Virus genome (UHGV): UHGV-0209512
Direction: 5' to 3' (one strand)
Length of the DNA: 59,753 nt
Source: a virus
Both the position numbers and the translations under genes were made by a program. Each line of letters begins with the position of its first letter. Position 1 is the first letter of the stretch. The notes beneath the pieces were generated by a model. The model was not told where the DNA came from and made no database searches. It saw only the letters and a list, made by a program, of their open reading frames with translations. Positions 1,492 to 58,778 of this stretch are shown in pieces.

Positions 1492-3474
1492 TTAGAACGG
1501 AACGTAATCCGGATCATCTACTTGTACAGGATTAACCACATTGTTCACTGTTATACCTTGCGTATTCTGCGAAACAATATCATCCCAGCTCACATCATCA
1601 TTATAGCTTGGACCTTCTGTTGTTCCATCCTGCCCGTATACTTTAACCTGAATAGCTTCGTCGTCCTGTGGTGTTTCAAACTTACCGAAACACGTACCAT
1701 CATAATCATAGTTCAATATCTCAGGCCATTTCTTATTGGTATGAACTTTGATGTATTTCGGTGTTTTAAGCATTGCAGCAACATCAAGAGCTTCTTCAAT
1801 AGTTTGTGGTAAAGGAAGATGCGTCCTTTTCTTCCACCATGCAACCGCTTTACGACCTGCCCAGTCACCATGAAGCAGAGCTACCCATTCGCTGAATATT
1901 TTACTACCGCAATAATAAGTCACCTTCATTGTTGGAGGTTTAGAGCTGTCATTGCGTTTAGTGTGCTTCGCATAAGTAACATGCGTAACTTTAAAGTCTT
2001 CAACTACCGGAATGTCCTGCTTGATTAATGCTTCGGTACTTGCTGCCTTTTTAAGTTTTGTCTGGAACTTAAACTCATGACCGCAAAATCCTTCTTTAAC
2101 ATAATCCGTTCCACGTAGTCTGAATCCCTTCAAATACAATTGTTGAACTTGTTCCTGTGTAACGCTATCCATAGGAATTGGTGCAAAGCCACCGCAATAG
2201 CGAGCAGATGCATGATTATACGACCCGCACACATCGCATTCTTTAACCGGAGCAGTACCAGCACCTTTTTCGCCCGGGCGCTTAGGTTTAACAGGGTCGT
2301 TAATAGGCCCCAAACGGCGCGTATTACCGCTGAAATCCAGTACAAGGCAGTTCTGCTTAGGGCTTGCTGCAATAGCTTGCAAGCGGCCTTCCTGCGTGGA
2401 AAGATCAAAACCCTCCGCGTACACCGGACGCGTACCGCGACCTAACATCTGGACCCATAGCACCGCCGACGCAGTGGGGCGGAGCATGATAATTAGATCG
2501 AGCATTGGATGGTCGAAACCTGTGGTTAAGACGTTGTTGTTCGTTAACGCTCGAAACTCTCCCCGCTTGAACTTTTCAATAATTTCATCACGCTCTTTTG
2601 CATCAAGCTTTGAGTGAATACATCCGCAGCTAATACCCATATCGTTCAGCATATCACACGCATCTTTAGCGTGTTCAATACCAGAACAAAATATAAGCCA
2701 GCTTTGACGGTCTTCACCACATTCAATTGCTTCCTCAAGTGCGCGGAGTGTTGCGTCGTCGCGGTTCACCGCACTTTGCAGCTCACTTTGAATAAACTCA
2801 CCACCGCGTTTACCTACCCCGTTGAGGTCCAGTTCCATCTTTGTACGCTTTGGCACAACCGGAAGCAAATAACCTTGCTCCAGGAACCAGTTAAAGGCTT
2901 CAGGGGTAGTCGCATCAAACGTTACTTTATCAAATAAAGCATCATCATCTTCGTTTTCCTTAACAATTGAGCCGTAACCCAGTCGATAAGGTGTAGCGGT
3001 AAGACCGATAATTTTTAAATACGGGTTAACTTCACGCAATGCTGCAAAGAACTTCTTATACATTGTTGCATCACGCGGACTAATAAGGTGCGCTTCATCC
3101 ACAAAGATTAGATCAACCTTGCCGAACTTTTTAGGATGCTTAGCAACAGATGCAATCCCCGCAAATGTGATAAGATTATAGACTTCTTTACGCTTCAAAC
3201 CTGCGCTGTAAATACCTGCTGGCGCTTCAGGCCAGACTTTCATTAATTTATCATAGTTTTGTGCAATTAACTCTTTGACGTGAGTTAACATCATTACGCG
3301 CTGGTTTGGATACCATTTATAAAGCAGATCGAGGAACCCCGCGATAACGAGCGATTTTCCTGTCCCTGTTGGTAACAGGATCAAAGGGTTCCCCGCGTTA
3401 CCCTTTTCAGCATCAAAATAGCGGAATACGCTATAAACTGCTTCCTGTTGATAATCGCGGAGCTGCATAATCAA
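1492..3474 (-). CDS. Superfamily 2 DEAH-box helicase with C-terminal extension
   Basis: Walker A-like LLPTGTGKS, DEAH box in IFVDEAHLIS, TAT-like motif in GLTATPYR; C-terminal Cys cluster CDVCGSYNHASARYC. Confidence 0.75.
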   Translation of the reverse strand: MIMQLRDYQQEAVYSVFRYFDAEKGNAGNPLILLPTGTGKSLVIAGFLDLLYKWYPNQRVMMLTHVKELIAQNYDKLMKVWPEAPAGIYSAGLKRKEVYNLITFAGIASVAKHPKKFGKVDLIFVDEAHLISPRDATMYKKFFAALREVNPYLKIIGLTATPYRLGYGSIVKENEDDDALFDKVTFDATTPEAFNWFLEQGYLLPVVPKRTKMELDLNGVGKRGGEFIQSELQSAVNRDDATLRALEEAIECGEDRQSWLIFCSGIEHAKDACDMLNDMGISCGCIHSKLDAKERDEIIEKFKRGEFRALTNNNVLTTGFDHPMLDLIIMLRPTASAVLWVQMLGRGTRPVYAEGFDLSTQEGRLQAIAASPKQNCLVLDFSGNTRRLGPINDPVKPKRPGEKGAGTAPVKECDVCGSYNHASARYCGGFAPIPMDSVTQEQVQQLYLKGFRLRGTDYVKEGFCGHEFKFQTKLKKAASTEALIKQDIPVVEDFKVTHVTYAKHTKRNDSSKPPTMKVTYYCGSKIFSEWVALLHGDWAGRKAVAWWKKRTHLPLPQTIEEALDVAAMLKTPKYIKVHTNKKWPEILNYDYDGTCFGKFETPQDDEAIQVKVYGQDGTTEGPSYNDDVSWDDIVSQNTQGITVNNVVNPVQVDDPDYVPF

Positions 3475-4379
3475 TCTTTCCCGTAATAGTTAGCTACTTG
3501 ATAGTTTTGACAACCAACTTTTTGACCCTGCGTGTCCACTGACGCGGAATGAAAATTGCAATACCATGTTCCATCATCTTTTGGCTCAAGAAATTGACAT
3601 GTGCGACAGTTTACTTCCGGCATAGTTTTACGCCAGCACAATGAGGAGTGGTCGCACCATTTGCATTCGAAGAATGTAGAGTCTTTAAAAGCACGGTCAG
3701 GAATATCCGTAGCAATAGCAATCTGCACACCACGATCAATATACATGTCCGCAGTGACCGGATCAAATGGAATAATTTCTGCGTAAACTTCATCATCGTT
3801 CTTGTTTACAGCAAGATATAACGCTGCGCCAAGTCCAAGCTTTCGCATGTACACGTTCATCTGCACATAGTGCTCAGGTTTAGCTTCTTTAACACCTTTA
3901 GCTTTCAGCTTCTTGAAAGACTTATCGTTGTGGGTCTTCATCTCAGTAAGCACAGGCATCCCAGGCTGAACGTCCGGACAACCTATGACCACACCATCGC
4001 AGGAACCGCCAAAGTGTCCGCCAGCTTCGCTGATACGGAACTGGTGTCCGTTTTCATCCTGCTGGTAGACCTGCATACCTGCCGCAAGAAGCATAGCAAT
4101 GAAACGCGCTTCTTCCAGATGTCCGCGGTTAAATAAGCGGAGCTGGCGTCCATCAAACTCTTTACGCGTAGCCCAGCGATATCCGTAGAACAGCTTGCGA
4201 GCACATTGCTGTCCAATAAGGGAAGCGCCTAAGTGACTGCGATTTCCGCTTTCAGGACGATATGCATCTTCAATTGTGGGAATGACTACGCCAAGATATT
4301 TACGGTAAGTCCCACCCTGATCTTTTTGCACACCGTCATTAATCGCTTGAAGTGTTTTTTCTGCAATATAAATAGCCAT
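3471..4379 (-). CDS. Cas4-like / RecB-family PD-(D/E)xK exonuclease with Fe-S type cysteine motif
   Basis: Asp in GSCDGVV and E-x-K in TEMKTH; C-terminal C-x2-C-x5-C (CKWCDHSSLC) plus an N-terminal Cys; sits in the recombination module next to SSB and Sak4-like genes. Confidence 0.65.
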   Translation of the reverse strand: MAIYIAEKTLQAINDGVQKDQGGTYRKYLGVVIPTIEDAYRPESGNRSHLGASLIGQQCARKLFYGYRWATRKEFDGRQLRLFNRGHLEEARFIAMLLAAGMQVYQQDENGHQFRISEAGGHFGGSCDGVVIGCPDVQPGMPVLTEMKTHNDKSFKKLKAKGVKEAKPEHYVQMNVYMRKLGLGAALYLAVNKNDDEVYAEIIPFDPVTADMYIDRGVQIAIATDIPDRAFKDSTFFECKWCDHSSLCWRKTMPEVNCRTCQFLEPKDDGTWYCNFHSASVDTQGQKVGCQNYQVANYYGKD

Positions 4380-4444
4380 TGGAATACCTTAGAAAAATAA
4401 GCCGTCTTTCGACGGCTTATGGACACTACAGAGGGAGGGTTAAC

Positions 4445-5329
4445 TTACTGCTGCCACGGCGGGACTGCTGCTTGTGCCGGATGCGGTTCAGCTTGCTGCT
4501 GCGGCTGAGCTTGCTGCTGAGGTGCTGCTACCTGGCCCGGCTGTGCTACCTGCTGCGCCCACGGCTGCTGAGCTGCTTCCGGTGCTACTGGCTGTTGTAC
4601 CGGAGCTTGCTGCACTGGCTGCTGTGGTGCTGCGTTTTGAGCAGGATTATCCCACGGCTGCGGTGCGGCATTCTGCCACGGTTGTGCTGCTGCGCCCTGC
4701 TGTGGTGCTGGTTGCTGCACAGGCTGCTGAACTGGTTGCTGTTGCTGCACCGGAGCTTGCTGCTGTACAGGTGCTTGCTGTTGTTGTGCAAACGGGTTAG
4801 CTGCTGGTTGCTGAGGTGCTGCGCCCGGGAAAGCTGGCTGCTGTGCTGGCGCACCTGCACCGAACGGGTTAGCTACTGCCGCTTGAGCACCCATTGCTGG
4901 AGCACCTGCTTCTTTTTCTGCATACTTAACCGGATCGTTGATGTTAGCATAACCGTTAGGCTCGTTGCTGTCTTCATAACCTTCCTGAGAACGAACTTTC
5001 AGACGCAGGTTCAGCGGAATGTTATGCAGTTGAGCAGGAGTATCCCAGCGAATTACGCCAACCGCGTGGGAAAGCGCGCCCAGTTGCTCGTATGCGATAC
5101 GCACAGTGTCTTCGTTGTCGTTAATAACGTTGTAACGAGCGAAAATTTTACGACCTTTAGCAAAACCGTCAATGATACTGAACGTTACCTGGATTGCCAT
5201 ACCGCCATTTTTGGTCGGTTTAAATTCAGATTCTTGAATTACTGCTTTATACCAACCTTTCGGCAATGCGCCGTAAGAAGGTGCTTGATAGCTGCTCGCG
5301 TCAAAGTGGAAATTAGTTGGCATAGTCAT
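4445..5329 (-). CDS. Putative ssDNA-binding protein (DUF669-like N-terminal domain) with ~160-aa Gln/Pro/Ala-rich tail
   Basis: Globular N-terminal ~135 aa followed by a tail of PVQQ/AQQP-type repeats; position between Sak4-like ATPase and exonuclease. Family assignment is from recall. Confidence 0.45.
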   Translation of the reverse strand: MTMPTNFHFDASSYQAPSYGALPKGWYKAVIQESEFKPTKNGGMAIQVTFSIIDGFAKGRKIFARYNVINDNEDTVRIAYEQLGALSHAVGVIRWDTPAQLHNIPLNLRLKVRSQEGYEDSNEPNGYANINDPVKYAEKEAGAPAMGAQAAVANPFGAGAPAQQPAFPGAAPQQPAANPFAQQQQAPVQQQAPVQQQQPVQQPVQQPAPQQGAAAQPWQNAAPQPWDNPAQNAAPQQPVQQAPVQQPVAPEAAQQPWAQQVAQPGQVAAPQQQAQPQQQAEPHPAQAAVPPWQQ

Positions 5330-6057
5330 TAGTTGATACCTTTCATTTTGTTGATAACAGAACCTAAGTGTGGGACTTCAACCGCATCTAAACGTCCCGA
5401 ACGATCCTTAGCGATTGTATTAAAGTCCGGTTGAGTTTGCAAGTAACGATACGAGTTACCTTGCTGATCCTTATTTACATTCAGACGAAACACTTCGTCG
5501 AAGAAGTAAGGGAGCATTTGCCCCAATTTGGACCCAGGCATAGATGGAGCATACGCGGTAACACCGGAGACTTCATCTTTGTCTTTACCCATTTTAGCAG
5601 ACATGTAAACATGTTTGCCAGGAATATCGCGAAACTTACGGATCAGATCTTGCATCTTTTCAAGCAAAGTACCATAAGCTTGACGAGGATCTTTCGTTCC
5701 CTTTTTCGCGTTGTTTAAACATTGTTCAGCGATTTCGCTCAAGCTGTCAAGCGCAATAGAATCGAAATACTGCTGGTTAGCTGGAGTTACACACCACTGA
5801 TAAGCAGCTTCAACGTCCTCCAGACATTTAACTTCGATAACAGGAATGTCATAAACGATCGGTAATCCCATGTTACCATAAACGCGATTAAGGTTTTCCG
5901 CTGCAATAGATAACAGACCGGACTCTGCGCTGATCAAAATTGGTTTAGGCAGTGTGGCTACAAGGCTGGTTTTACCCATACCTGCTTCACCGTAAACCAG
6001 AATTTTAACGCCTGTGTCTTGCACTACTTGTGAAGACATTTTAATTTCAATGGCCAT
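5329..6057 (-). CDS. Sak4-like RecA-fold ATPase (phage recombination protein)
   Basis: Walker A in ILVYGEAGMGKTS; ~240 aa; AGAGAGG RBS; typical partner of SSB and Cas4-like nuclease. Confidence 0.6.
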   Translation of the reverse strand: MAIEIKMSSQVVQDTGVKILVYGEAGMGKTSLVATLPKPILISAESGLLSIAAENLNRVYGNMGLPIVYDIPVIEVKCLEDVEAAYQWCVTPANQQYFDSIALDSLSEIAEQCLNNAKKGTKDPRQAYGTLLEKMQDLIRKFRDIPGKHVYMSAKMGKDKDEVSGVTAYAPSMPGSKLGQMLPYFFDEVFRLNVNKDQQGNSYRYLQTQPDFNTIAKDRSGRLDAVEVPHLGSVINKMKGIN

Positions 6058-6122
6058 TTAACGCCTCTCTTTTAAGTTCGCGCTCATTGTAACGTAATAT
6101 ACTTTGAACCCTCAATTACTTT

Positions 6123-7049
6123 TTAATCTAAAGCCTGATCACTTTCATCGCGGAAATGCATAAAGTTTGCAAAACGCGGTTTATCTTTCACGCCATGAGG
6201 AAAGTGTTTATATGAAATAGTCCGACCTTTAATTTTGTCAGGGTTATTCCAATAATAAATCTTATCCTCTTGCGTTAGTTTACCAGGACTAACGTTGATT
6301 GTATTGCCCGTCTTAACGTCTTTACAAACCAACGTCCCGATCATACCGTTAGGAACTTTATTTTCCTGATGTGAAGATCGTGTAGTCCTGCCCAGCTCGT
6401 TAACAGTAGCTTCATTAAGGTTAGTTTCACCCTCAATAATATCAAGGACAATAGCGTCTTCCTGAATAAAGCGTTTAATACGAAGATATCCACCTTCACG
6501 AACTGTGCCGCGCCCATGTTTATAAGGCTTGTCAGGATCACGGATAATAATACCTTCATAGCCCATATCAAGCCAGATGTTTTCCCAGTAGAGCAGCTCT
6601 TGTAAAGACTTAACCACATGCATCTCTACCACTTTCAGGTCGAACAATTCACCCTTCGCGTGCTGTGTGGTTATAAAGTCTTTCATCATGTTGTAGCGAG
6701 CTTCATAGCCCAGCTCTGCTACACTTTCCGCACACAGATCAAAGATGTGCCATATTAGCAACGGCTCACCTTCAATTGTATTTACCGCACTGGTTGTTTT
6801 ACGACACAGGTCCGGATCTGTTTCCAACCCTGCCGCAAGTTCACCGTCATAGCCCATGTACTGCGGACCGCTGAAAATTGCGCTTGTATGGCGGTTTTTA
6901 AACAGCTTTAAGCTGCGCCCTACTATTTGCCCATCCGGATTTAAACCGCGCACACCGTCGATTTTAGGCAGTATGCAGCACGGAAACTTAATCTTTTCTT
7001 CAACCGCGTCAGTCGCTAAATGTGGTTTGAATGCCATTGTCAACCTCAT
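6123..7049 (-). CDS. ATP-dependent DNA ligase
   Basis: Adenylation motif KIDG in LPKIDGVRGL; ATGA overlap with upstream stop at 7046-7049. Alternative start at ATG 7035-7037 with a GAGG RBS. Confidence 0.7.
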   Translation of the reverse strand: MRLTMAFKPHLATDAVEEKIKFPCCILPKIDGVRGLNPDGQIVGRSLKLFKNRHTSAIFSGPQYMGYDGELAAGLETDPDLCRKTTSAVNTIEGEPLLIWHIFDLCAESVAELGYEARYNMMKDFITTQHAKGELFDLKVVEMHVVKSLQELLYWENIWLDMGYEGIIIRDPDKPYKHGRGTVREGGYLRIKRFIQEDAIVLDIIEGETNLNEATVNELGRTTRSSHQENKVPNGMIGTLVCKDVKTGNTINVSPGKLTQEDKIYYWNNPDKIKGRTISYKHFPHGVKDKPRFANFMHFRDESDQALD

Positions 7050-7669
7050 TCATAATAATCATGTTGATGGGAACTGCTGCGTATACCGCAACGTTCTAAA
7101 AGTATTGCAGCTTTTTGAGCTTTCTCTTTCATACGGGTATTACGGCGTAAATGTCCGCTACCCTTTTTAGGTCTATTTTCCTTTTTCTTTGCTTCGGAAA
7201 TAAGCTCTTTGCATTCCTGCAAACGGATCTTACTTCTTTCCAATCGCATAGCAGAACGCGCACGTTCATCGCAAAATCTTTGGGCTTTGCTACGCTGGTC
7301 CTGATTACTTGTATGACCTTTAACGTGGCGAAACTCAATAGTAAGGTTATATTTACGAAGTTGATCGTTCAACCATTTGAAAGCTGTACCTTCCTGTTCG
7401 CTTTTCCAGCTTGCCTCTTTATACACTTTAATAGCAGTTGAACAATCTGTTTGCACAATTAAATGATCACCCGATTGAATTAAATTAGCTTTCAATCCTT
7501 CCCAAATGACATTACAAATTGCCATTGTTTCAGCTGCATTGTTATCCGGAGCACCGCGTAATGGGCCACCATTAGCATTATTTCCACGGTTACAGACTAC
7601 CCATCCACCATATCCCGCGGCTTTTGTATTTGGGCAAAAACTTGCATCAGAAATAATTGTTACTCTCAT
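7046..7669 (-). CDS. RNase H-like nuclease with basic C-terminal tail
   Basis: RNase H-fold acidic residue pattern (SDASF, ETMAI, QTDC, HVKGH) by eye; Lys/Arg-rich C-terminus. Confidence 0.5.
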   Translation of the reverse strand: MRVTIISDASFCPNTKAAGYGGWVVCNRGNNANGGPLRGAPDNNAAETMAICNVIWEGLKANLIQSGDHLIVQTDCSTAIKVYKEASWKSEQEGTAFKWLNDQLRKYNLTIEFRHVKGHTSNQDQRSKAQRFCDERARSAMRLERSKIRLQECKELISEAKKKENRPKKGSGHLRRNTRMKEKAQKAAILLERCGIRSSSHQHDYYE

Positions 7670-7687
7670 TGTTTTTCCTTAATAAAC

Positions 7688-7707
7688 AGGGGGTCGAAAG
7701 ACCCCCT
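7688..7707 (-). terminator. Stem-loop AGGGGGTC-GAAA-GACCCCCT inside the leftward operon
   Basis: Perfect 8-bp stem with GAAA loop; on the minus strand followed by GUUUAUU. Possible attenuator or RNA-stabilising hairpin. Confidence 0.4.
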
Positions 7708-7713
7708 TGTAAG

Positions 7714-7944
7714 TTATGCAGGAATAGATTCTTCCGGTTCTTCAGGGATTACGATTTCAATCTCTTCTTCATTTTGGAAGGTTAGACGGAAACCATCCCC
7801 TGGGCGCCCGAAAGCAAAGGTAAGGGCTATCGTATTATCCTGCTCGTAATGACAGATACTTTCTACTTTCATTTCGTTACCGTAAAAGTCACGGTAAATC
7901 ATTCCAGGAAGCGCATCGGTCGCTTTGATCTTTCTTACAGCCAT
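7714..7944 (-). CDS. Hypothetical protein (76 aa)
   Basis: ORF with GGGGGAA RBS; acidic C-terminus. Confidence 0.45.
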   Translation of the reverse strand: MAVRKIKATDALPGMIYRDFYGNEMKVESICHYEQDNTIALTFAFGRPGDGFRLTFQNEEEIEIVIPEEPEESIPA

Positions 7945-7955
7945 TATTCCCCCGT

Positions 7956-8747
7956 TTACAGTTTGTCTTTGAACTCTTCGATATATTTCTCAATCGGGTA
8001 CTGTTTGCGTTTGAAACGATCAAACAAAATCTTAGCAGCTTTTACCTCCTCTTTATTCTCCTTATTTGCGCCCGGTGCCATAAAGTCATGCCATGTGAAA
8101 CCGTTCAGAGTATACATGTTTGCAATGTGTTTATTGTAACGGCTTTCCCAGTCTACACGCGGACCTTCCATTGTGCGTAAGCCGCGACCAAGCACCTGTA
8201 CATATAAATCTTTCTGACGTTGTACAGCTTCGCCATTATAAGGTCCGGTTTTAAACTCAACAACACTACCGTTAAGATCTGCACCATCTGCAAAATTTTG
8301 CAACAGAGTGTCAATAACGTCATTGAATGTCGGGGCCATTACTTTACCCTGAGCAATACCTGCCAAATAACCGACATTTTCTTCACCGTACAACTCGATC
8401 AGTTCTTTCTTGGTCGCTTCTGCTTCTTTGTTTGCGGACAAAGCCAACATCTGTTGTTCGAACATGTGTTCCTGTTCCAGGAACTGGGCATAGCGCTCTT
8501 CATCCACTTTGCAGACAATCCATTTGTATTCAACATCCTTACTGAAGTCCGGATATTGATCCACTTCTACTACTTCCGTAGTAAAGAACTTGCCGTTATA
8601 TTGAATAACAACTGTATCGCCCGGCTGCAATTCGTCGCTTTCCAGGGCACGGTAGGTATAAAGACGACCACCTGCTTCAAACTTAACTTTGACAGTCACA
8701 ACACCTTTCAGCAGGGCGTGATAAGCTTTCTGAAATTCTTTACGCAT
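7956..8747 (-). CDS. Hypothetical protein (263 aa)
   Basis: Intact ORF with AGAGGA RBS; no recognisable motif. Confidence 0.55.
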   Translation of the reverse strand: MRKEFQKAYHALLKGVVTVKVKFEAGGRLYTYRALESDELQPGDTVVIQYNGKFFTTEVVEVDQYPDFSKDVEYKWIVCKVDEERYAQFLEQEHMFEQQMLALSANKEAEATKKELIELYGEENVGYLAGIAQGKVMAPTFNDVIDTLLQNFADGADLNGSVVEFKTGPYNGEAVQRQKDLYVQVLGRGLRTMEGPRVDWESRYNKHIANMYTLNGFTWHDFMAPGANKENKEEVKAAKILFDRFKRKQYPIEKYIEEFKDKL

Positions 8748-8789
8748 TTTTAGTTTCCTCTTGGGCGGTTGATCCGCCCGTTAATGTGG

Positions 8790-9200
8790 TTAAGCTTTAT
8801 TTGGAACAATTTCCAGTGACGCAGATCCAACTTTAGATTCAACGCACTGGTTGAAGACTGCGGCTTGCTCCGCTGTAAGTTTACGCCAAGCCGCGACTTT
8901 CAATACAGGTTTATTTTCCACAAGCTGATCAACGTCAACACCAACTTTAATCAGATCGCCCAGGATTCCGTTAAGGCTTGGAAGATCAATCTTACGATCA
9001 ATCTTGTGGGTCATTTTCATAACCCCGCCAGTAATCTCAACTTTATTAGTCCCCTCAGACGGCGCTGGGAAATAGGACTTAATAATCTTATCACGGAGTG
9101 CTCGCTCACGAGCTTGCAGCTTCTGCAATTCCGCTTTAGTTTTATACCACTCAATTACATCTGCTTCTGTTGCTTGTACTGCTTTATCTGCGTCGAACAT
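8790..9200 (-). CDS. Hypothetical protein (136 aa)
   Basis: ORF 8790..9260 trimmed to ATG 9198-9200 preceded by GAGGA. Confidence 0.45.
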   Translation of the reverse strand: MFDADKAVQATEADVIEWYKTKAELQKLQARERALRDKIIKSYFPAPSEGTNKVEITGGVMKMTHKIDRKIDLPSLNGILGDLIKVGVDVDQLVENKPVLKVAAWRKLTAEQAAVFNQCVESKVGSASLEIVPNKA

Positions 9201-9263
9201 TTTTCTGTCCTCTGTTGTGTTTCGATGTATGTATAGTAACACATCCATGTGCTTAAGCAAGAC

Positions 9264-9848
9264 TTATTTTTTATCTAAATGACGTGAAGTCATGATCGGA
9301 TGCGTAGCAGCTTCTTCCTCTGCTGTAACCACATTAGCAGATGTACCAGTGGACCCGAAGCCATTAGCACCGCGCTCAGTAGTTTTGAGCTCGTCTACTT
9401 CTACCAGTTGCACGCAAGGCACCTTAATAAGCATAGCTTGCGCGACACGGCTACCGTGCTCAACAATGAAGCCTTCTTCACCATCAATGGTAAGCTTAAT
9501 CTTAACTTCCCCAGTGTAATCGCTGTCAATAACACCCACGCAGTTTGCCAAACGCACATCATTTTTGAACCCGTGACCGCTGCGGGAATAGATCATAAGC
9601 GCGTAGCCTTCAGGGATGTCAAATGCTAATCCTGTGCGAATAACTTCGCTTTCTCTGAAGTACACCTGATTATACCCATCCGCACGTAGATCCGCGTGCA
9701 GGTCAAAACAAGCTGCCCCGGCAGTGGCGAACGCTGGTAGAATTGCGGTGTCGGTTAAGCGCTTTACCCCAATTAACTTGGCTGGTTTACGAGAAAGGAT
9801 TTTATCCTGTAAGTTTATATTTCGTATCTCATTAATGATATCAGTCAT
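9264..9848 (-). CDS. dut: dUTP diphosphatase (dUTPase)
   Basis: Conserved dUTPase motifs GVIDSDYTGE and RGANGFGSTG; AAGGGG RBS. Confidence 0.8.
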   Translation of the reverse strand: MTDIINEIRNINLQDKILSRKPAKLIGVKRLTDTAILPAFATAGAACFDLHADLRADGYNQVYFRESEVIRTGLAFDIPEGYALMIYSRSGHGFKNDVRLANCVGVIDSDYTGEVKIKLTIDGEEGFIVEHGSRVAQAMLIKVPCVQLVEVDELKTTERGANGFGSTGTSANVVTAEEEAATHPIMTSRHLDKK

Positions 9849-9857
9849 GATTTCCCC

Positions 9858-10325
9858 TTATTGAATTGAACCGCGATCAATTAACCATTGTTTCGCGTGC
9901 GCTTTAAAAATAATGCGATAGTCATCAAGACTAATCTCCGCGCGGATGGAATCTTTAACTTCGTACCACTGCCACTCGCCATTGCTAAAGACAACTGGAT
10001 TGAGTGGTAGAACAACCTTCCATCCTTTACGTTCTATTTTATACATCAGAACTGGATATCTTCCAAGCTCTTTAGCCGATTGAACAGTCTGCTTCCACCA
10101 TGTGTTCACCTGTGGTGTAGCATGGTTTTTTACTTCAACCGCATGGTGGCATGTATTGCTAATGTCGCAACCACCGACCGCACTTTGATTCTGGTTACGC
10201 TGAGCAATAGGTTTCTCCGGTAACCGCATCCCCAAACACACCCAACACTCGGCATAAATTGCATTAAAGAAATCGCATACTTCCCGCTCACCGCGTTGAC
10301 CTTTAGCGCGAATATTTACTGCCAT
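9858..10325 (-). CDS. Hjc-like PD-(D/E)xK endonuclease (putative Holliday junction resolvase)
   Basis: ORF 9858..10415 trimmed to ATG 10323-10325 preceded by GGAGA; KGQRGEREV and GGCDI ... AVEVKNH resemble archaeal Hjc-type resolvase motifs. Confidence 0.45.
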   Translation of the reverse strand: MAVNIRAKGQRGEREVCDFFNAIYAECWVCLGMRLPEKPIAQRNQNQSAVGGCDISNTCHHAVEVKNHATPQVNTWWKQTVQSAKELGRYPVLMYKIERKGWKVVLPLNPVVFSNGEWQWYEVKDSIRAEISLDDYRIIFKAHAKQWLIDRGSIQ

Positions 10326-10367
10326 GTTTGTCTCCATAACTTTAATGTAAAACACTTCATAAAGAAT

Positions 10368-10394
10368 TTTATATTGAAGTTCTGTTGATCTCAA
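10368..10394 (-). promoter_or_regulatory. Candidate sigma70-like promoter (TTGAGA-15 nt-TATAAA) on the minus strand
   Basis: -35-like TTGAGA (complement of 10389-10394) and -10-like TATAAA (complement of 10368-10373), immediately downstream of the terminator and upstream of the resolvase gene. Spacer is short; by-eye only. Confidence 0.25.
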
Positions 10395-10397
10395 GGA

Positions 10398-10430
10398 ACA
10401 AAAAAGCCCAGGCATAAGGATTCCTGGGCT
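10398..10430 (-). terminator. Rho-independent terminator (minus strand)
   Basis: 8-bp stem AGCCCAGG/CCTGGGCT with 10-nt loop; on the minus strand followed by UUUUUUG. Confidence 0.55.
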
Positions 10431-10742
10431 CTCTTGATTGTCGGATAGCTTACTTTGACTGCCGTCTTCGTCTATCCTGGCCTACTTGTACAGCCTCGCC
10501 AAAGGCTGGTGACGGTTTGGTACATCTGGCGCCGTCGCGTTAAACATCGTTCACATCGTTCAGTAAGTTGCGGGTTTACCCTGTCCGCTCCAGGAAGCCC
10601 AGCGAAAGTAGTTGCTGTAAGGAGGTACAGCTACCGCTTTCAAGGGCTTGAGTTAAGCATCGTTCACTAAGTTAATGTTGTTAAATTGTTAAACCTCGTT
10701 AACTGTGGTTATCTTAAAGGATGCAGTCTTGAATGGCAAGCT

Positions 10743-12010: not shown

Positions 12011-14347
12011 TTATTTGCTTAAGTCTTTGAAAACACTCTCAATTGACTCGTCTATATACCATCCCAACCCCCTGAAATTACGCTTTAACGCATCCTCACG
12101 TGTGACTGGGACGAGTGCTCCCATATCTACAAGTTGTTTGATAGTGAGGTCTGTTGCAGTACCTGCTCCCATCCTGTGATTCTTGAATGCTGCTAACCCG
12201 TAGGTTCTGCGTGTGATAGTTGCCTTCGGAATAATACCGTCAACTCGCAGCTCCTTACGATCACATGCAATTTTACCGCCAAGATAGTCTTTGCAGACCT
12301 GACAGATAGCCTTCACACGCGTTTCATCATCGCCGCCAATAGTACCTTTTTCCCATGCATTGATCATGATGTCCTGTCCGTGCGTAACAAAATCTACCGC
12401 CCATTGCATGTGATTAGGCTGAACGACAGGATTGATCCAGTTTTCCCCAACTGCTAACAGGGATGCAAGACGCAGAGCTTTAAGGTGCGCACGGTTCCAC
12501 GGCTGACGAATAGCTTCGTCTTTAGTTGCGTTAATGTGTTCATCACATAACAAGTTAAACTCCCGTTCAATCCTTTCCGCTTCAGGGCTTAACTGGACAG
12601 TAACGGTCTGGAACTTTGCCATTGTCACCAACGTGTGGTTAACGAGATGGCAGACCATGTCCTTTAATTGTTGTGGCATTGTGATTTCAGGATTTTCGTT
12701 TGCAGGAACACGATCCCCTTCATATTGCACAATGTGGAAACGGGACAAGAAACCGTCTTCCATCATTTCACGGGTTAATGCTTCAAAGAATGTGTCCGGT
12801 GTTGTTTCGCCCAGCACGCTAAACGCCACCCCGTCCATCGTTTTGGTATTATTAGCCTTATCAGAATATCCGATACCGCCAACAACATCCATAGCACCAG
12901 ATTTTTGATACACATCTGTGATAGTTTGCTTCAGGGTGTAGTTTGCAGTGCCAGGTTGAGCTGTTGCCATACCTTTAATGGTTTTACCGAACTCGCCGTT
13001 AATATTCACAAACGAAGTGTGATCCGCAAAACTTTTACGCAAGGCAGGGCCGGAAGCATAGTTAGTCATGTCTACAAATTCATGCACTTGCGGTAATTGC
13101 TCGCCCACTTGCTTACAAATATAACTGGGCCCAGCGTGAAGCATTTCTTTACCCACACCTGATCGGGCAATAAGCACAAAGTAACCGTTTAACCCTGTGT
13201 TGGTGATAGTATTCCACACCTTGCCGCATACGCCGGATAAGAATGCTAAAGATGCAGTGATTGCAATTTCTTTTACCGGACGCTGCGAGGCCTTGTAGAT
13301 ATACTTCGCAAGCTCACCAGCAAGTCCCGGCGGCCATTCAATAGCTGTTGCATCAATGGACGTACTTTCTGCAACTACTATTTCACCGGACGGGCTGACT
13401 GTGGTTACAGGCGTTTCCGTTACCTGCTGCATTGCACTGTGTGCGGCTTGCATACGGGCAGCGTAATCCCGCGCCAGCGCCGCTACGTTTTCCTGGGCAA
13501 TGCGCTCACGCTCCATACGACCGCGGCACATGCGCAAACAACGGTCAATATGAACATTGTTCTTGTTAGCCTTCTCACGTTTGCCCAGTGCGCTGTAACG
13601 GAACAGACGACGACATTGCTCATTACTTTCTGTGTAGAATGCATACATAGAAATAAGGGCAAGGTCTGCTTCAGACTGGGAAGGGAATCCCATTTCAACC
13701 CATTCGCCATTGAAGAGGCGTGCATACTTATCGCCGTTGTCTGCTTCAAGGGCACGCTGGTGAATGGTTGCATCGTCTTCTACCGGATCTTTTTCTACCA
13801 GTTCAATTTCATATGTCTTGCGCTGAAGATCAATTTCATTCACAAGCATAGTAAGGTAATGATCACGCTCTGCAACTGGTTTGTTATAGACAGGATTACC
13901 CGTGCAGATAATAAAACGCTCCTGACTATAAACCTCGACACCATCACGTCGGCGTCCTTTACCGATATTTCCTCTTAACCACAGGTGGACACCCAAGCCT
14001 GACCGACTTACTTCAGTGTAAGTATCGAACGCAGTCATGATCTGTTCGAAGCGACGCAACTGTTCCGGCGTTGTGTGCTTCTTGGGATCCGGTTCATTGG
14101 TTGCGTTCTTCACATCCAGGTCGATGCAGGTGAACGGGTCTTGCGCAGTAAGCACAAAGCCAATATAAGGTTTGTTGAAATGAGCGGCACAACCTTTGGC
14201 AGCTTCAAACGTCATAAGCATATCCGGATCGGTAACATCCGCAGCCATCAGGCGCCCGATATCGTTGTCCCACACAAGCGGCTTTTTGTCCGCATCGGCG
14301 ACAGCCCATTGTGGGAAAGCTTTAATTTCAGCGGGAAACAATTCCAT
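12011..14347 (-). CDS. Replication protein with N-terminal primase-polymerase-like domain (778 aa)
   Basis: N-terminal region with GFVLTAQDPFTCIDLDVKN resembles prim-pol catalytic motifs; central P-loop-like ARSGVGKE is not a canonical Walker A; adjacent to the AT-rich repeat region. Confidence 0.5.
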   Translation of the reverse strand: MELFPAEIKAFPQWAVADADKKPLVWDNDIGRLMAADVTDPDMLMTFEAAKGCAAHFNKPYIGFVLTAQDPFTCIDLDVKNATNEPDPKKHTTPEQLRRFEQIMTAFDTYTEVSRSGLGVHLWLRGNIGKGRRRDGVEVYSQERFIICTGNPVYNKPVAERDHYLTMLVNEIDLQRKTYEIELVEKDPVEDDATIHQRALEADNGDKYARLFNGEWVEMGFPSQSEADLALISMYAFYTESNEQCRRLFRYSALGKREKANKNNVHIDRCLRMCRGRMERERIAQENVAALARDYAARMQAAHSAMQQVTETPVTTVSPSGEIVVAESTSIDATAIEWPPGLAGELAKYIYKASQRPVKEIAITASLAFLSGVCGKVWNTITNTGLNGYFVLIARSGVGKEMLHAGPSYICKQVGEQLPQVHEFVDMTNYASGPALRKSFADHTSFVNINGEFGKTIKGMATAQPGTANYTLKQTITDVYQKSGAMDVVGGIGYSDKANNTKTMDGVAFSVLGETTPDTFFEALTREMMEDGFLSRFHIVQYEGDRVPANENPEITMPQQLKDMVCHLVNHTLVTMAKFQTVTVQLSPEAERIEREFNLLCDEHINATKDEAIRQPWNRAHLKALRLASLLAVGENWINPVVQPNHMQWAVDFVTHGQDIMINAWEKGTIGGDDETRVKAICQVCKDYLGGKIACDRKELRVDGIIPKATITRRTYGLAAFKNHRMGAGTATDLTIKQLVDMGALVPVTREDALKRNFRGLGWYIDESIESVFKDLSK

Positions 14348-14368
14348 TATTTATCACCTCCAATCACT

Positions 14369-14650
14369 TTAGCCATAGATCTGTTTCCTCCGCCATTCTT
14401 CATATGCTGAATTATTTGCGTCATATACTTCGCAAGCGTCTTTCATGCTGTCGTACAGTCCAAGGAAGGTTCGCCTTGTTTCCCCGCCTGCATCTACCCA
14501 TGTTAATCGGGCAAGCCATTTACCCGTTTTGTAATCGAAAGTAACGCCCTCACGCCCGCTCACATTTTCCCGAGGTACTCGCGGTTTCCGGCGTGCAAGC
14601 CCGCGACCTTTGAAATTACTGCCCGGGACAGTCCTGCACTTACGACCCAC
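14369..14650 (-). CDS. AP2-domain DNA-binding protein (about 93 aa)
   Basis: GVTFDYKTGKWLARLTW ... FLGLYDSMKDACEVYD matches the AP2 pattern; no in-frame ATG, proposed GTG start at 14648-14650 preceded by GGAGG with 6-nt spacer (track ORF starts at TTG 14668). Confidence 0.45.
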   Translation of the reverse strand: MGRKCRTVPGSNFKGRGLARRKPRVPRENVSGREGVTFDYKTGKWLARLTWVDAGGETRRTFLGLYDSMKDACEVYDANNSAYEEWRRKQIYG

Positions 14651-54247: not shown

Positions 54248-55167
54248 CAGAACAACTCCATTACACGATCACGGAATGTGCCGTCATGGGTAGCGTTAAT
54301 GTTTGCAGCAATCACACCATACGCCCATAAGTTGAAGGCAGCACGTGATTCATAGATTGTTGATAAACGTTCGTAAGTGAAACCGTTTTGCTCAAGGTAT
54401 TTAAGGACAGCGTCTTGTTCAATTTCAGTTAATGTTGAAACATGCTTACCAAAATGATGGCGGTCCGGTGACTTATCTGATACGCGCATTGGTCCCCACG
54501 GAGGGGTAACCACACTTCCAAACGCTGCCGCTTGAATCCAGGAGGATGAGTCGCAGCTATACCACGGATAACGCTCCATAATGGTTGTTGACGTAATACC
54601 AAACGCATGAAGTTTAATCTTAGCACGTCCGCTACCATCGCAAATATATTTGTCCCACATGCGGTCCAGCCAAGTTTTAAGCGTGTCCGTTGAACGCCCT
54701 ACCATGCCACCAATCGTGATATATTCGTAGTTCTTCATGTAATATTCAAGATAGCGGAAGTCCTCACCAAAGTGGAAGCACGGTAACGGTTTAGCACCGC
54801 GTGCTTCCATTTCAAGCTGATTACGGTATGTTTGCAGTGGATCACCAATACCATCAAGCACCGAGGCCATTACAGCACCATCTTCTACCCGCAGAATATC
54901 TTTATTGCGTTTGATGTACTCACAGTATTCAACAATATCAATGTGAGCACCTAACGAGTGCGCGGAGAATGCACCAGAGTCGAGAAACACTTTAGCCCCA
55001 TCCGCACGCATTTGATCAACATACTTCTGACGTCCAACGTAGTGGTATGATTCCAAAATATGGGGCAGATTGCGCGTGATATTTTTCTCATGCTCCGACA
55101 GTTTTTCATAACGCTGCTGTCCAGGCATATATCCGTTCGTGTAAACTGCTGCCATAAAAACGTTCAT
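54247..55167 (-). CDS. dpdA: DpdA-like DNA-guanine transglycosylase (TGT-fold) for 7-deazaguanine insertion into DNA
   Basis: 306 aa; TGT-like features by eye (LDSGAF, HAFG); linked to folE-queD-queC-queE in the same operon. Confidence 0.6.
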   Translation of the reverse strand: MNVFMAAVYTNGYMPGQQRYEKLSEHEKNITRNLPHILESYHYVGRQKYVDQMRADGAKVFLDSGAFSAHSLGAHIDIVEYCEYIKRNKDILRVEDGAVMASVLDGIGDPLQTYRNQLEMEARGAKPLPCFHFGEDFRYLEYYMKNYEYITIGGMVGRSTDTLKTWLDRMWDKYICDGSGRAKIKLHAFGITSTTIMERYPWYSCDSSSWIQAAAFGSVVTPPWGPMRVSDKSPDRHHFGKHVSTLTEIEQDAVLKYLEQNGFTYERLSTIYESRAAFNLWAYGVIAANINATHDGTFRDRVMELF

Positions 55168-55370
55168 TTTTGGAATGGCCCTCCAAACTGATCAATTAAT
55201 TCTAAAGTACGCCACGCTTCATTAAATGCTTCGTCCGCGCGATGTTTAGCGTCAATAAGCTGCTGCTTTAAAACATCTGTAGGCGCATCATTCTGTATTG
55301 CAGAACAAGCATCCCCAGTACCTGCTTTAAGCTGGTAGAATGCTGTCTCTAAGATTAGTTGTCTTGACAT
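55164..55370 (-). CDS. Hypothetical protein (68 aa)
   Basis: ORF 55164..55397 trimmed to ATG 55368-55370 after GGAGG (4-nt spacer); ATGA overlap with dpdA start. Confidence 0.4.
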   Translation of the reverse strand: MSRQLILETAFYQLKAGTGDACSAIQNDAPTDVLKQQLIDAKHRADEAFNEAWRTLELIDQFGGPFQK

Positions 55371-55390
55371 ATTTCCTCCAATGACTAAAA

Positions 55391-55422
55391 AGCCCATACC
55401 AGTATTATGACCGATATGGGCT
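55391..55422 (-). terminator. Stem-loop AGCCCATA...TATGGGCT downstream of folE (minus strand)
   Basis: 8-bp stem with 16-nt loop; on the minus strand followed by UUUUAGUC; possible partial terminator between folE and dpdA. Confidence 0.35.
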
Positions 55423-55441
55423 TGATCTGTAAAGCTATCTA

Positions 55442-56068
55442 TTATTTACAAGCTTCAAGGAACTCCCGACGCCAAGCATCACCTTTAAACGATGCAGCAC
55501 CGCGGAAAGCTTTAGTAATGGTAGAGCTTCCGCATACCTGCTTAACCCCGCGCGATTCCATGCACATATGCTTAGCATCGATGTAAACGCACACAGCTTT
55601 CGGGTCTAAATGCTCCTGGATAGCATCTGCAATCTGGTTAGTAAGACGTTCCTGAACTTGCAGTCGACGACTAAAAGCATCCACAACGCGAGACAGCTTA
55701 CTAAGCCCAACGATCTTCCCATTGGGGACATAACCCACAACAGCACGCCCGATAATAGGAGCCATGTGATGCTCACAATGACTGTATACAGGAATATCAC
55801 GGACAATGACCATTTCATCCGTACCTTCCGCACCATCTTCAAAGGTTTTAAACAATCCAGCAATATCTGCATCGTAACCGCCGAACCACGTTGCATAAGC
55901 TTTCGCTACACGCTCCGGAGTTTCCTCCAGCCCTGGGCGCAGAACTGCGCTAACTTCAATTTGGGATAGCAAAGTACGCACAGCGTTAGCAATACGGAAT
56001 TGAACACCTTCACTATTAATACTATATTTAGACATGGTTTGCAGTTTCCTTGTTGTTAATGTGGTCAT
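55442..56068 (-). CDS. folE: GTP cyclohydrolase I
   Basis: Conserved FolE motifs CEHH (SHCEHHMAP), GLSKL and QVQERLT. Confidence 0.85.
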   Translation of the reverse strand: MTTLTTRKLQTMSKYSINSEGVQFRIANAVRTLLSQIEVSAVLRPGLEETPERVAKAYATWFGGYDADIAGLFKTFEDGAEGTDEMVIVRDIPVYSHCEHHMAPIIGRAVVGYVPNGKIVGLSKLSRVVDAFSRRLQVQERLTNQIADAIQEHLDPKAVCVYIDAKHMCMESRGVKQVCGSSTITKAFRGAASFKGDAWRREFLEACK

Positions 56069-56069
56069 A

Positions 56070-56603
56070 TTACAGGCTATAGTTTACGTGGCATTTCGAA
56101 GTTTCTTCGATGGTGCATTCTACAAGTTGAACACCATGTTCGTCAAGCAGTTGCGGTCCAATTACGTTAACCATATATGCAGCCAGATTTTCAGCTGTCG
56201 GGTTGAACGGTAAAGATACCAGCGAACCTAAGAAATGAAGGTTATCTTCCTGCTCTGTCATATCATAACCTTGAGCAGCATCACGACAAGTGAGATCTTT
56301 CAACCCTTGCATTAGCGAGTCTTTTTCCCAGTGCAGGAACTTATGATCCCAGTTATCTTCCAGCCACTGACAGAGCGTAGTTTTAACCACACTAAAATCG
56401 ATAACTCTCCCAACGTCGTCCAACTTACCTTCAACGGAGAAGCCTTTCGCGCTCGGGATGTAGTTTTCGCTTTCTATACGTTTCGGTGCAACCTTAAAAT
56501 GAAACTTATAGTTGTGACCGTGAAGATGACGACACTTGCTTTCGTGTCCTACAACACGATGTCCAGCACAAATTTCATGTGAACGAATTACTGTATAGCT
56601 CAT
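56070..56603 (-). CDS. queD: 6-carboxy-5,6,7,8-tetrahydropterin synthase (QueD-like, PTPS family)
   Basis: N-terminal EICAGHR ... HGHNY fits the PTPS/QueD metal-binding pattern; 177 aa, longer than typical QueD. Confidence 0.7.
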   Translation of the reverse strand: MSYTVIRSHEICAGHRVVGHESKCRHLHGHNYKFHFKVAPKRIESENYIPSAKGFSVEGKLDDVGRVIDFSVVKTTLCQWLEDNWDHKFLHWEKDSLMQGLKDLTCRDAAQGYDMTEQEDNLHFLGSLVSLPFNPTAENLAAYMVNVIGPQLLDEHGVQLVECTIEETSKCHVNYSL

Positions 56604-57190
56604 TTTAATACCTCTTTAGACTGTTCAATTTCTAACGCACGCTGTGCTGACGCAATAATGTCTTTCAAATCTTCTACCAGATTCTTATGACCGCGTTCAC
56701 CAGGCTGCAACGCCTTTTTAATCAAATGTTGTAAAGCTGGGTTAGTTGTCTTCCAAGCTTCCAAGACATCATACACGTCCACGATGCATTTTACAACATT
56801 CCCATTTTGATCTTTACCATAAATAACTTTCTGATATTTATTCATGGGAATTTTAGACGGTTCGTATTTCGTAAAAACCGCACCATTAAATGTATTACTT
56901 ATACTTATTCCAGAAGAAGGTTGATGGTACAATCCGGAGCGAGTGTTTTCGCTAGCCTGTTTGACGTAATCTTCCGTAACGATATATCGCCAAGCTATAA
57001 TATCTTGAACTTTATAAGGGCTATTCTCATCCATAGCTGAACGCCCTTCCATAGCCCAATCCCATCCATGTAATAGATTCTTAACGTGTGTGCCGTTGCG
57101 CAAACGAACTTCAAACTTCTCATTACGAAGAAAAATAGGCATTCCTTTACCGTCGTGTTGGTGCCAAATTTTATTCAAATTATCTTTCAT
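56600..57190 (-). CDS. Uncharacterised protein embedded in the 7-deazaguanine cluster (196-209 aa)
   Basis: ORF 56600..57229 (TTG start); alternative ATG 57188-57190; no recognisable motif; lies between queD and a membrane protein gene. Confidence 0.5.
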   Translation of the reverse strand: MKDNLNKIWHQHDGKGMPIFLRNEKFEVRLRNGTHVKNLLHGWDWAMEGRSAMDENSPYKVQDIIAWRYIVTEDYVKQASENTRSGLYHQPSSGISISNTFNGAVFTKYEPSKIPMNKYQKVIYGKDQNGNVVKCIVDVYDVLEAWKTTNPALQHLIKKALQPGERGHKNLVEDLKDIIASAQRALEIEQSKEVLK

Positions 57191-57191
57191 T

Positions 57192-57671
57192 TTACGCTCT
57201 CGCTGTACGTGAATGAACTTCGTAAACAACCCAAAGGATAGCGGACGCTGTGAACTTACTTAAGCTCATTGCCACCATAGATCCTGGATTAACAATACCT
57301 ATAATACTTAAGAACACAATGGAGTCAATCGGTACAGCTACTAAAGAGCTGATAAATACTCGTTGATGAAAAGGCTTCTTGGTGACCGTGTATACTACAT
57401 AATCAGCAAACTCACTAAGCGCAAAAGACGCAACGGATGCTACTACAACCGCAGGATCTCCGAACACCCAGCTAAGGACGCAACCAACAATCATTGCAGG
57501 GATGACGCCTTTGCCAGCGTTACGCTGTGCGTAATCACGCAAGACAAAGATAATGCCTACAAAGAAAGCCATCATTGGGACTACGCCGAGTGGCGTATTA
57601 AGCATTGGAAGGTAGGAAAAACCCAGGTTTACGAATGTAATTGCAGCCAGATAAGCAACAATAAATTTCAT
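57192..57671 (-). CDS. Polytopic membrane protein; candidate queuosine-precursor transporter
   Basis: ORF 57192..57761 trimmed to ATG 57669-57671 after GGAGAA; about five hydrophobic segments; transporter assignment is inferred from the neighbourhood only. Confidence 0.35.
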   Translation of the reverse strand: MKFIVAYLAAITFVNLGFSYLPMLNTPLGVVPMMAFFVGIIFVLRDYAQRNAGKGVIPAMIVGCVLSWVFGDPAVVVASVASFALSEFADYVVYTVTKKPFHQRVFISSLVAVPIDSIVFLSIIGIVNPGSMVAMSLSKFTASAILWVVYEVHSRTARA

Positions 57672-57791
57672 ACTTTTGTTCTCCAGTTTTAACAGCGTTA
57701 TTCGCTGGTTGTTGGGTTTAAAAGCTTTAGTAGTATAGTTGGGTTCCCGCACCCTAAACAATGCGCTAGCGGTGCGGTTTTCTCGGTAAGA

Positions 57792-58514: not shown

Positions 58515-58778
58515 TTACTTCACCTCTTCATAAGTAATTTTAAAGATATCAGGTTTGCAAGGATAAATCTCACCTTTCACACCCTGAACAATATAATCAC
58601 CAACATTAGCAAGATGATCACCTTCTAGTGTTTTGATAGTAAAGCTACCATCTTTATTTTCAATAGCTGTGCCATTTAAACAAGCTTTACTAAACCATGT
58701 AGGCGTTGAACCAATTTCCATTGTTGTAGTTAGCAGGAATGCTTCAACTTCTACAGGCTTCTTTCTAAATTTAGCCAT
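58515..58778 (-). CDS. Hypothetical protein (87 aa) between queC and queE
   Basis: Intact ORF; no motif. Confidence 0.45.
   Translation of the reverse strand: MAKFRKKPVEVEAFLLTTTMEIGSTPTWFSKACLNGTAIENKDGSFTIKTLEGDHLANVGDYIVQGVKGEIYPCKPDIFKITYEEVK

Follow-up and report, generated by a model that had tools for sequence, protein, structure and literature searches.

The C-terminal tips of the proteins known as SSBs, which bind single-stranded DNA (ssDNA), serve as hubs by which the proteins of replication, repair and recombination are organised on that DNA, and the code known for these interactions is an acidic peptide that ends in Pro-Phe. Here we analyse an SSB-like protein with a different kind of tip, encoded in a stretch of viral DNA of 59,753 nucleotides (UHGV virus genome UHGV-0209512; hereafter the window). 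The window is an essentially complete genome of a Seuratvirus (Queuovirinae) coliphage, and its region 3400-6100 shares 95-96.5% DNA identity with phiG7, OddieOddie, CAjan, Seurat and about 30 other phages. Several described systems bear on this protein. The SSB of Escherichia coli carries a 56-residue disordered linker rich in Gly, Gln and Pro, followed by an acidic tip of 10 residues (PMC7584906); condensation is the work of the linker, and the tip serves to recruit partners (PMC7584906, PMC10164576). The DUF669 proteins have been argued to be a family of phage SSBs whose OB fold has diverged far and which profile searches relate to the SSB of phage N4; phages that possess them have been reported to be without other SSBs, and the description of the family includes acidic C-terminal tails (PMC4889955). 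Cognate phage SSB genes sit beside sak4 genes, and the protein of phage HK620, assigned to DUF669 by its authors, is a proven SSB in vitro; removal of its last six residues (NDYPPF) abolishes the binding of Sak4 to SSB-coated ssDNA, together with the stimulation of annealing and recombineering (PMC5928155). Finally, PrgE of plasmid pCF10 (PDB 8S4S/8S4T) is an OB-fold ssDNA binder that is believed to descend from an SSB of phage origin, and its monomers sit on ssDNA like beads on a string, bound via an N-terminal arm (PMC11137577).

The gene under study and the parts of its product that matter for the following argument are located as follows (coordinates are those of the window):

4445-5329, minus strand: SSB-like gene of the DUF669 family, 294 amino acids, stop codon at 4445-4447
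4898-5308, minus strand: globular DUF669 domain (residues 8-144), predicted OB fold with the topology b1-b2-b3-alpha-b4-b5
4448-4912, minus strand: Gln/Ala/Pro-rich C-terminal tail, i.e., the linker (residues 140-294), predicted to be disordered from its composition and low AlphaFold2 confidence (pLDDT)
4790-4870, minus strand: two ANPF motifs, with NPF at residues 154-156 (4862-4870) and 178-180 (4790-4798)
4697-4774, minus strand: (A)PVQQ repeat zone (residues 186-211), with Tandem Repeats Finder (TRF) arrays at 4708-4741 and 4743-4780; Seuratvirus insertions and deletions cluster here
4559-4684, minus strand: three internal tip-like QPW motifs, at residues 216-218 (4676-4684), 224-226 (4652-4660) and 255-257 (4559-4567)
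4448-4483, minus strand: C-terminal tip HPAQAAVPPWQQ (residues 283-294), recognised by its conservation, with PPW at 4454-4462

We hold with considerable confidence that this protein is an SSB whose disordered tail has been kept by selection and ends in a conserved motif. To collect relatives, HMMER was run exhaustively with only the N-terminal 140 residues as query, which keeps the collection free of any bias by the tail; the search gave 5,224 matches at E <= 0.001, and the representatives discussed here are the best 150 cluster representatives at 50% identity among them. (When the N-terminal domain alone was used in a word-indexed search for homologues, a single match came back, and a scan of viral contigs with the protein found four loci.) PPW is present within the last 16 residues of 117 of these 150 phylogenetically related representatives, compared with an expectation of 3.0 from shuffled tails, and a further 15 carry P-x-W in its place, the tip consensus among them being (H)PAQ[GAS]A[TVL]PPW[AQM]Q. 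In an alignment of 56 sequences, W292 is invariant, while P290, P291 and W226, the last of these belonging to an internal QPW motif, are at least 90% conserved. The tip Trp of the relatives is followed by two to 13 residues, so that it is never C-terminal, and its flank is non-acidic; in the protein of the window, E281, 11 residues before W292, is the sole acidic residue among the last 15, and the last 13 contain none. The acidic C-terminal tail ascribed to DUF669 proteins (PMC4889955) is consequently absent from a protein that ends in HPAQAAVPPWQQ and has four acidic residues in the 155 of its tail, and so is the acidic peptide ending in Pro-Phe-COOH that typifies bacterial SSBs, PPW being non-terminal and without an acidic flank. 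A few close relatives end in the classical acidic ...DDVPPFE or ...DDDSDLPF, and it is from these that PPW is seen to take the place of the classical tip of SSBs.

The motifs within the tail resemble its end. Across the tails of the relatives, the residue that precedes Trp is Pro in 293 cases and next most often Ala (75 cases), and the residue that follows it is mostly A or Q. The two ANPF copies are encoded by a direct repeat (D5) with 94% identity, and both are kept in 11 of 11 Seuratvirus sequences. Elsewhere in the window, a PPW-like end, which might make its bearer a competitor for the docking site, is found solely in an unannotated frame of 135 codons ending at 14410 on the plus strand, which overlaps the open reading frame (ORF) 14075..14410 and lies antisense to the 778-residue ORF 12011..14347.

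That the tail is subject to purifying selection follows from a comparison of the window gene with ten other Seuratvirus genes taken from GenBank phage records (proteins of 282-296 residues). The ratio of nonsynonymous to synonymous substitution rates (dN/dS) between the window gene and these relatives is 0.03-0.15 for the tail (with dS reaching 0.40), little higher than the 0-0.08 of the domain, and 0.04-0.09 for the sense frame of the whole gene. The tail is present in all 11 sequences, and 22 of 22 alignment gap columns fall within it, all of them in frame and concentrated in the (A)PVQQ zone. Since dN/dS is this low and every insertion or deletion preserves the frame, the comparison excludes a drifting slippage product and argues that the tail is selected functional sequence.

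In its composition, the tail (residues 140-294) is 77% Gln, Ala and Pro (31, 26 and 20%, respectively); it contains four Trp and three Phe, lacks Lys and Arg, and has a net charge of -4 over its 155 residues. Its sequence entropy is 2.62 bits versus 4.14 bits for the domain, and its best stretch of 100 residues reaches a Gln+Pro+Ala fraction of 0.81, versus 0.45 in the runner-up among all ORFs of the window. AlphaFold2, with the 56-sequence alignment as its input, models the tail with a pLDDT of 45-55 and without secondary structure, apart from a slight rise of the pLDDT at the extreme C-terminus, so that residues 140-294 are predicted to be disordered. An earlier note on this DNA, made from the sequence alone, had already proposed a disordered tail of this composition, and its estimate of a globular domain of ~135 residues followed by ~160 residues of tail, placed at 4445-4950, is correct to within ~12 codons. 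It had also called the underlying DNA repetitive. Repeats do occur, as dispersed families of direct repeats with 60-80% identity and as short, imperfect 12- and 18-nucleotide arrays of 2.1-2.8 copies, the only ones that TRF detects; the tail DNA, with a GC content of 0.60-0.645 versus ~0.42 nearby, is better called low-complexity (cryptically repetitive) than a clean tandem array.

Whether the tail is unusually long, as had been claimed, depends on the yardstick. It is long when set against bacterial SSBs and against the many members of DUF669 in the viral structure library that have just 118-190 residues; within its own clade, however, it is ordinary, as the 150 nearest representatives have a median total length of 274 residues and 129 of them possess tails of at least 80 residues (median Gln+Pro+Ala 67%, median net charge -1). 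Every relative examined has a tail, and we encountered no close relative that had lost it. The protein and the E. coli SSB (PF00436) are both built as an OB fold with a disordered linker rich in Gln and Pro and, at the C-terminus, a conserved interaction peptide, a resemblance in design and not in family membership, as the two domains belong to separate families. The linker has ~143 residues here versus 56 in E. coli, and the whole tail 155 versus 66, which makes them 2.4-2.8 times longer here; the linker is Ala-rich here and Gly-rich there, and the tip is PPW-QQ here and DDDIPF-COOH there. The contrast drawn previously with the short acidic tail of bacterial SSBs is loose, as the E. coli protein also has a 56-residue disordered linker before its acidic tip; the tail here is ~2.4 times longer and lacks the acidity, but it is of the same general kind.

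The assignment of the protein as SSB-like is well supported by the sequence comparisons, and the earlier note's identification thereby stands. The Pfam model DUF669 (PF05037) matches the 294-residue protein with 54.4 bits against a cut-off of 21 (E 1.8e-14), residues 8-144 aligning with model positions 2-138 of 138; phrog_13350 matches it over its full length (E 1e-137), and the SSB-annotated PHROGs phrog 6015, 378 and 7778 match the domain. For residues ~20-140, the AlphaFold2 model has a pLDDT above 90 and the OB topology b1-b2-b3-alpha-b4-b5, and the best match of this predicted domain among solved structures is the ssDNA-binding PrgE, with bacterial SSBs next. The gene also lies directly after a gene for a Sak4-like protein (see below). 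A sequence search of the PDB with phmmer gave no match for the 294-residue protein, and at E <= 0.01 it has no match to PF00436, the bacterial SSB domain. A profile search of the PDB returned only two lipoproteins and, from the cell-division protein ZipA, an unstructured linker rich in Pro and Gln, all of which we rejected as compositional matches and not homologues. Among the ORFs of the window, phmmer with the E. coli SSB revealed no SSB of the E. coli type at E <= 10, within the limited sensitivity of such a search, and the DUF669 gene is the only SSB candidate that the window offers, which further argues for the SSB identity of its product. In its match to the family hidden Markov model, its predicted, highly diverged OB fold and its position as sole SSB candidate of the genome, the protein thus resembles the DUF669/N4-SSB-like SSBs (PMC4889955); it departs from them in that they are described with acidic C-terminal tails, whereas the long tail of this clade is nearly uncharged. 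In every close relative whose annotation we read, the DUF669 gene is labelled 'hypothetical protein'. For Escherichia phage KS_W4 (1046-1915 of locus L012), the deposited annotation lets the SSB gene begin at its second Met (M3), a minor inconsistency, as the start in the other Seuratvirus records lies six bases further upstream.

The structural similarity to PrgE extends to a conserved N-terminal arm. In the arm that precedes the OB fold (residues 1-20, window 5270-5329), F9 is invariant and A11 near-invariant ('NFDA'), and by analogy with PrgE, whose N-terminal tail contacts the neighbouring monomer, it may mediate a filament-like cooperative binding of ssDNA. PrgE differs in having 144 residues and no long disordered tail; the identity is ~10%, and a sequence-profile search misses PrgE.

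What the tip might do is best approached through the gene that precedes that of the SSB:

5329-6057, minus strand: gene for a Sak4-like AAA_24 ATPase/annealase, upstream of the SSB gene (Pfam AAA_24, E 1.2e-27; phrog_124, Sak4-like, E 1.7e-59)

The TAA stop codon of this gene overlaps the ATG of the SSB gene by one nucleotide (TAATG, 5327-5331 on the minus strand), which suggests that the two genes are translationally coupled; the same one-nucleotide junction is found in CAjan, in Nonagvirus BRET and in the metagenomic contig L002. The order Sak4-then-DUF669 recurs in nine other phages or contigs (CAjan, L002, L003, L005, BRET, phage 73, Shy, SE4 and HK620), a count from which we left out Rhizobium phage RHEph04, in which the DUF669 gene has a gene annotated as hypothetical upstream of it. 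The parallel to the HK620 SSB (HkaK/Abc1; Hutinet et al. 2018, PMC5928155) is twofold: in both phages the SSB gene lies directly downstream of a Sak4-like AAA_24 gene and overlaps it, and in both the SSB has a Pro-Pro-aromatic motif at its C-terminus, NDYPPF in HK620 and VPPWQQ here. The HK620 protein is distinguished by its 195 residues without a long Gln/Pro/Ala linker between domain and tip, compared with a tail of 155 residues here, and by a tip that has Asp nearby and ends in Phe, while the tip here is uncharged and has two residues after the Trp. It is because position, Pro-Pro-aromatic core and synteny parallel HK620 that we regard the PPW tip as a candidate docking site for Sak4.

These considerations lend themselves to the following model. 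The N-terminal OB-fold domain would bind ssDNA, and the disordered Gln/Pro/Ala linker of ~145 residues behind it would carry the short conserved motif, ...HPAQAAVPPWQQ, with which the protein ends and to which we assign the function of an SSB tip such as DDDIPF of E. coli or NDYPPF of phage HK620. On ssDNA at forks or processed ends, the linker would offer PPW to replication and recombination proteins of the phage; the internal tip-like QPW and NPF copies would probably be presented as well and add valency. The likeliest partner would be the translationally coupled Sak4-like annealase, possibly joined or replaced by the nuclease, the helicase or the replisome, and the outcome would be the loading of partner proteins onto SSB-covered ssDNA. 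By analogy with the described systems, recruitment of partners through PPW is the best-supported mechanism. We consider the chain as a whole to be probable, and likewise that the tip recruits a protein partner; naming Sak4 as this partner is more tentative and may well prove wrong. The suggestion that the tail may recruit partner proteins had been made in the earlier note in general terms; the purifying selection on the tail and a conserved PPW that matches the NDYPPF of HK620 by position and sequence support it indirectly and make it specific.

How such docking would proceed is constrained by the chemistry of the tip. In canonical docking between SSBs and their partners, the carboxylate of the terminal Phe and the acidic residues are bound. 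As the tip described here carries no charge and never ends with its aromatic residue, this mode is ruled out for it. An uncharged, non-terminal Trp implies a different pocket and probably insulation from the SSB-binding proteins of the host, and the tip is probably specific to phage partners. A bolder proposition, possible but speculative, is that a large clade of phage SSBs has swapped the acidic ...Pro-Phe-COOH tip of cellular and many phage SSBs for an uncharged internal PPW with degenerate QPW repeats along a very long linker, as a second docking code orthogonal to the SSB interactome of the host. Sak4, nuclease and helicase of the phage might then be assembled without competition or interference from the host's SSB binders, possibly in a condensate of the phage's own making. 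By this clade we mean most of the 150 nearest 50%-identity clusters, which comprise Seuratvirus, Nonagvirus, Septimatrevirus, Lokivirus, Kleczkowskavirus and many uncultured phages.

Several points weigh against recruitment of Sak4 through PPW. The 150 representatives are phylogenetically related, so that the shuffle statistics overstate their independence. The HK620 SSB is not detectably similar to the protein of the window (no match with BLASTP, none between the HK620 SSB and the Pfam model DUF669 at E <= 0.1, and an hhalign probability of 3.7%), and given that none of these methods finds significant similarity, the HK620 precedent is an analogy backed by synteny and not demonstrated homology. 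Furthermore, the partner could be a helicase, primase, polymerase or nuclease instead of Sak4, and the PPW motif could fold back onto the OB fold of its own protein.

Among the alternatives, the strongest sees in the tail chiefly a phase-separation module, in which Trp/Phe stickers and Gln/Pro/Ala spacers on an oligomeric SSB would form liquid condensates that concentrate replication and recombination factors; condensate formation had also been raised in the earlier note. As an account of the tail's chief role, we find this possible but doubtful; condensate formation as such is plausible and compatible with docking through the tip. The uncharged, Q/P-rich low-complexity tail resembles the Gln/Gly/Pro-rich linker that the E. 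coli SSB needs for phase separation (PMC7584906, PMC12143593). In the tails of the relatives, aromatic residues occur about once per 18-20 residues, and in 84% of 124 tails, which are not independent sequences, their spacing is more even than in shuffled versions (mean z -0.78); for the tail of the window protein alone, however, the spacing is not significant (P = 0.2). The periodicity of Trp also outlasts a change of spacer in distant genera. The spacer is Gly/Asn/Gln-rich in the Septimatrevirus phage 73 and the Lokivirus Shy and Gln/Pro/Ala-rich in RHEph04, and periodic Trp residues, together with a terminal APW, PAW or PSW, are retained in all three despite this change; the terminal motif kept at this distance also speaks for a conserved tip. 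What speaks against condensation as the chief role is that the mechanism of E. coli also needs an electrostatic contact between tip and OB fold, which an uncharged tip could not copy, and that conservation is strongest at one terminal motif, a pattern that points to specific docking and not to diffuse stickiness.

The tails of Pseudomonas phage 73 (1447-2193 of L017) and Escherichia phage Shy (1492-2289 of L018) contain periodic G-[AG]-W-G-[GQ] motifs. These resemble the GGWGQPQQPQ stretch that the linker of the E. coli SSB holds.

Alternatively, the tail might be a passive entropic spacer that tunes the cooperativity or mode of ssDNA binding, or that auto-inhibits the OB fold, and would then need no dedicated partner. 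The linker of the E. coli SSB does regulate cooperative ssDNA binding (bioRxiv 10.1101/2022.01.17.476650; PMC7584906), and a bulk-property role would fit the in-frame variation in length between relatives and the drift in composition between genera. We nevertheless judge a purely passive role unlikely, as it leaves unexplained the invariant Trp and the 12-residue C-terminal consensus across clusters of <=50% identity, and equally the dN/dS of ~0.1 in the tail.

A third alternative takes the C-terminal region for a transcription activator in the manner of the phage N4 SSB, which would contact the host RNA polymerase and switch on late genes in step with replication. In its favour, profile searches connect the N4 SSB with DUF669 (PMC4889955), and it is the C-terminal residues of the N4 protein, and not its binding of ssDNA, that are needed to activate the E. 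coli sigma70 RNA polymerase via beta' (PMC4496689); moreover, in the annotated CAjan region, Seuratviruses have no gene for an RNA polymerase of their own. We regard such a function as improbable all the same, because the conserved neighbours are recombination and replication genes instead of regulators, and the same type of tail is found across many phage genera with differing regulatory strategies. The weakest alternative, a functionless slippage expansion or an annotation artefact whose true product ends after the OB domain, could appeal to the cryptic repeats and variable length of the tail DNA and is effectively refuted by the comparison of sequences, with a frame that is open in all relatives, a tail dN/dS of 0.03-0.15 in the sense frame versus >1 in the antisense frame, and the same terminal motif on the tails of 117 of 150 divergent representatives.

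The following features lie on the other side of the SSB gene:

3471-4379, minus strand: gene for a Cas4-domain exonuclease, 302 amino acids (phrog_1990, E 1e-117; no Pfam match at E <= 0.01)
4397-4420, minus strand: terminator-like hairpin with a 10-bp stem, a GAAA loop and a T-run, identified by a match to the consensus only

All genes of this neighbourhood lie on the same strand, in the order DNA ligase (6123-7049), Sak4-like protein (5329-6057), SSB, Cas4-domain exonuclease (3471-4379) and superfamily 2 (SF2) helicase (1492-3474). With the exception of HK620, a Cas4-like nuclease, by which we mean a gene annotated as such or an unannotated gene of ~300 codons at the corresponding position, follows the SSB gene in the same nine loci and in RHEph04, sometimes with one gene inserted in between; the SF2 helicase follows the nuclease in the five loci that were fetched far enough (the window, CAjan, L002, L003 and L005). 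The hairpin is located between the stop codon of the SSB gene and the start of the exonuclease gene, and it may raise the expression of Sak4 and the SSB above that of the downstream nuclease and helicase. The exonuclease has a Cys-rich C-terminal region (CKWCDHSSLC...CRTCQF...C) and is kept beside the SSB in many genera. At a distance from this locus, a cluster for 7-deazaguanine DNA modification (QueC, QueD, a QueE-like protein, GTP cyclohydrolase and a queuine tRNA-ribosyltransferase/DpdA-like protein) is expected at 50713-59690 beside the DNA polymerase, solely from the gene order of CAjan (1713-10538 of locus L001), and such a cluster would fit Queuovirinae.

The DNA of the SSB gene can also be read in other frames:

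4379-5332, plus strand: antisense ORF of 317 amino acids, the in-phase reverse complement of the whole SSB gene (frame offset 0), spurious
4474-4800, plus strand: antisense ORF of 108 amino acids
4585-4860, minus strand: alternative-frame ORF of 91 amino acids

The 317-residue antisense frame is open because the SSB gene uses no TTA, CTA or TCA codons, for which the probability, given its seven Leu and eight Ser and the codon usage of its neighbours, is about 0.05. As a real gene this frame has to be rejected: one or two stop codons interrupt it in eight of ten Seuratvirus relatives, and its dN/dS is 1.1-3.4 versus 0.04-0.09 in the sense frame. The earlier dismissal of the antisense ORFs as spurious agrees with these data.

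An OB fold followed by a linker and a tip is a known architecture; the non-acidic PPW tip, the QPW repeats and the very long linker are an undescribed and widespread variant of it, and in our literature searches we met no DUF669 SSB described as Trp-tipped or Gln/Pro/Ala-tailed. This clade also corrects the view that acidic tails are general among SSBs of the DUF669 family. The chemistry of the tip is noteworthy to specialists and does not overturn the general picture of how SSBs function. If the reading is true, an uncharged and non-terminal PPW on a Trp-punctuated linker of ~150 residues implies a different mode of docking. The PPW tip would then give a handle for charting which contacts Queuovirinae and related phages make in the replisome and in recombination, a cognate SSB tip paired with its annealase could improve Sak4-based recombineering, and the system of PPW and linker offers a way to ask whether the linkers of phage SSBs build replication condensates.

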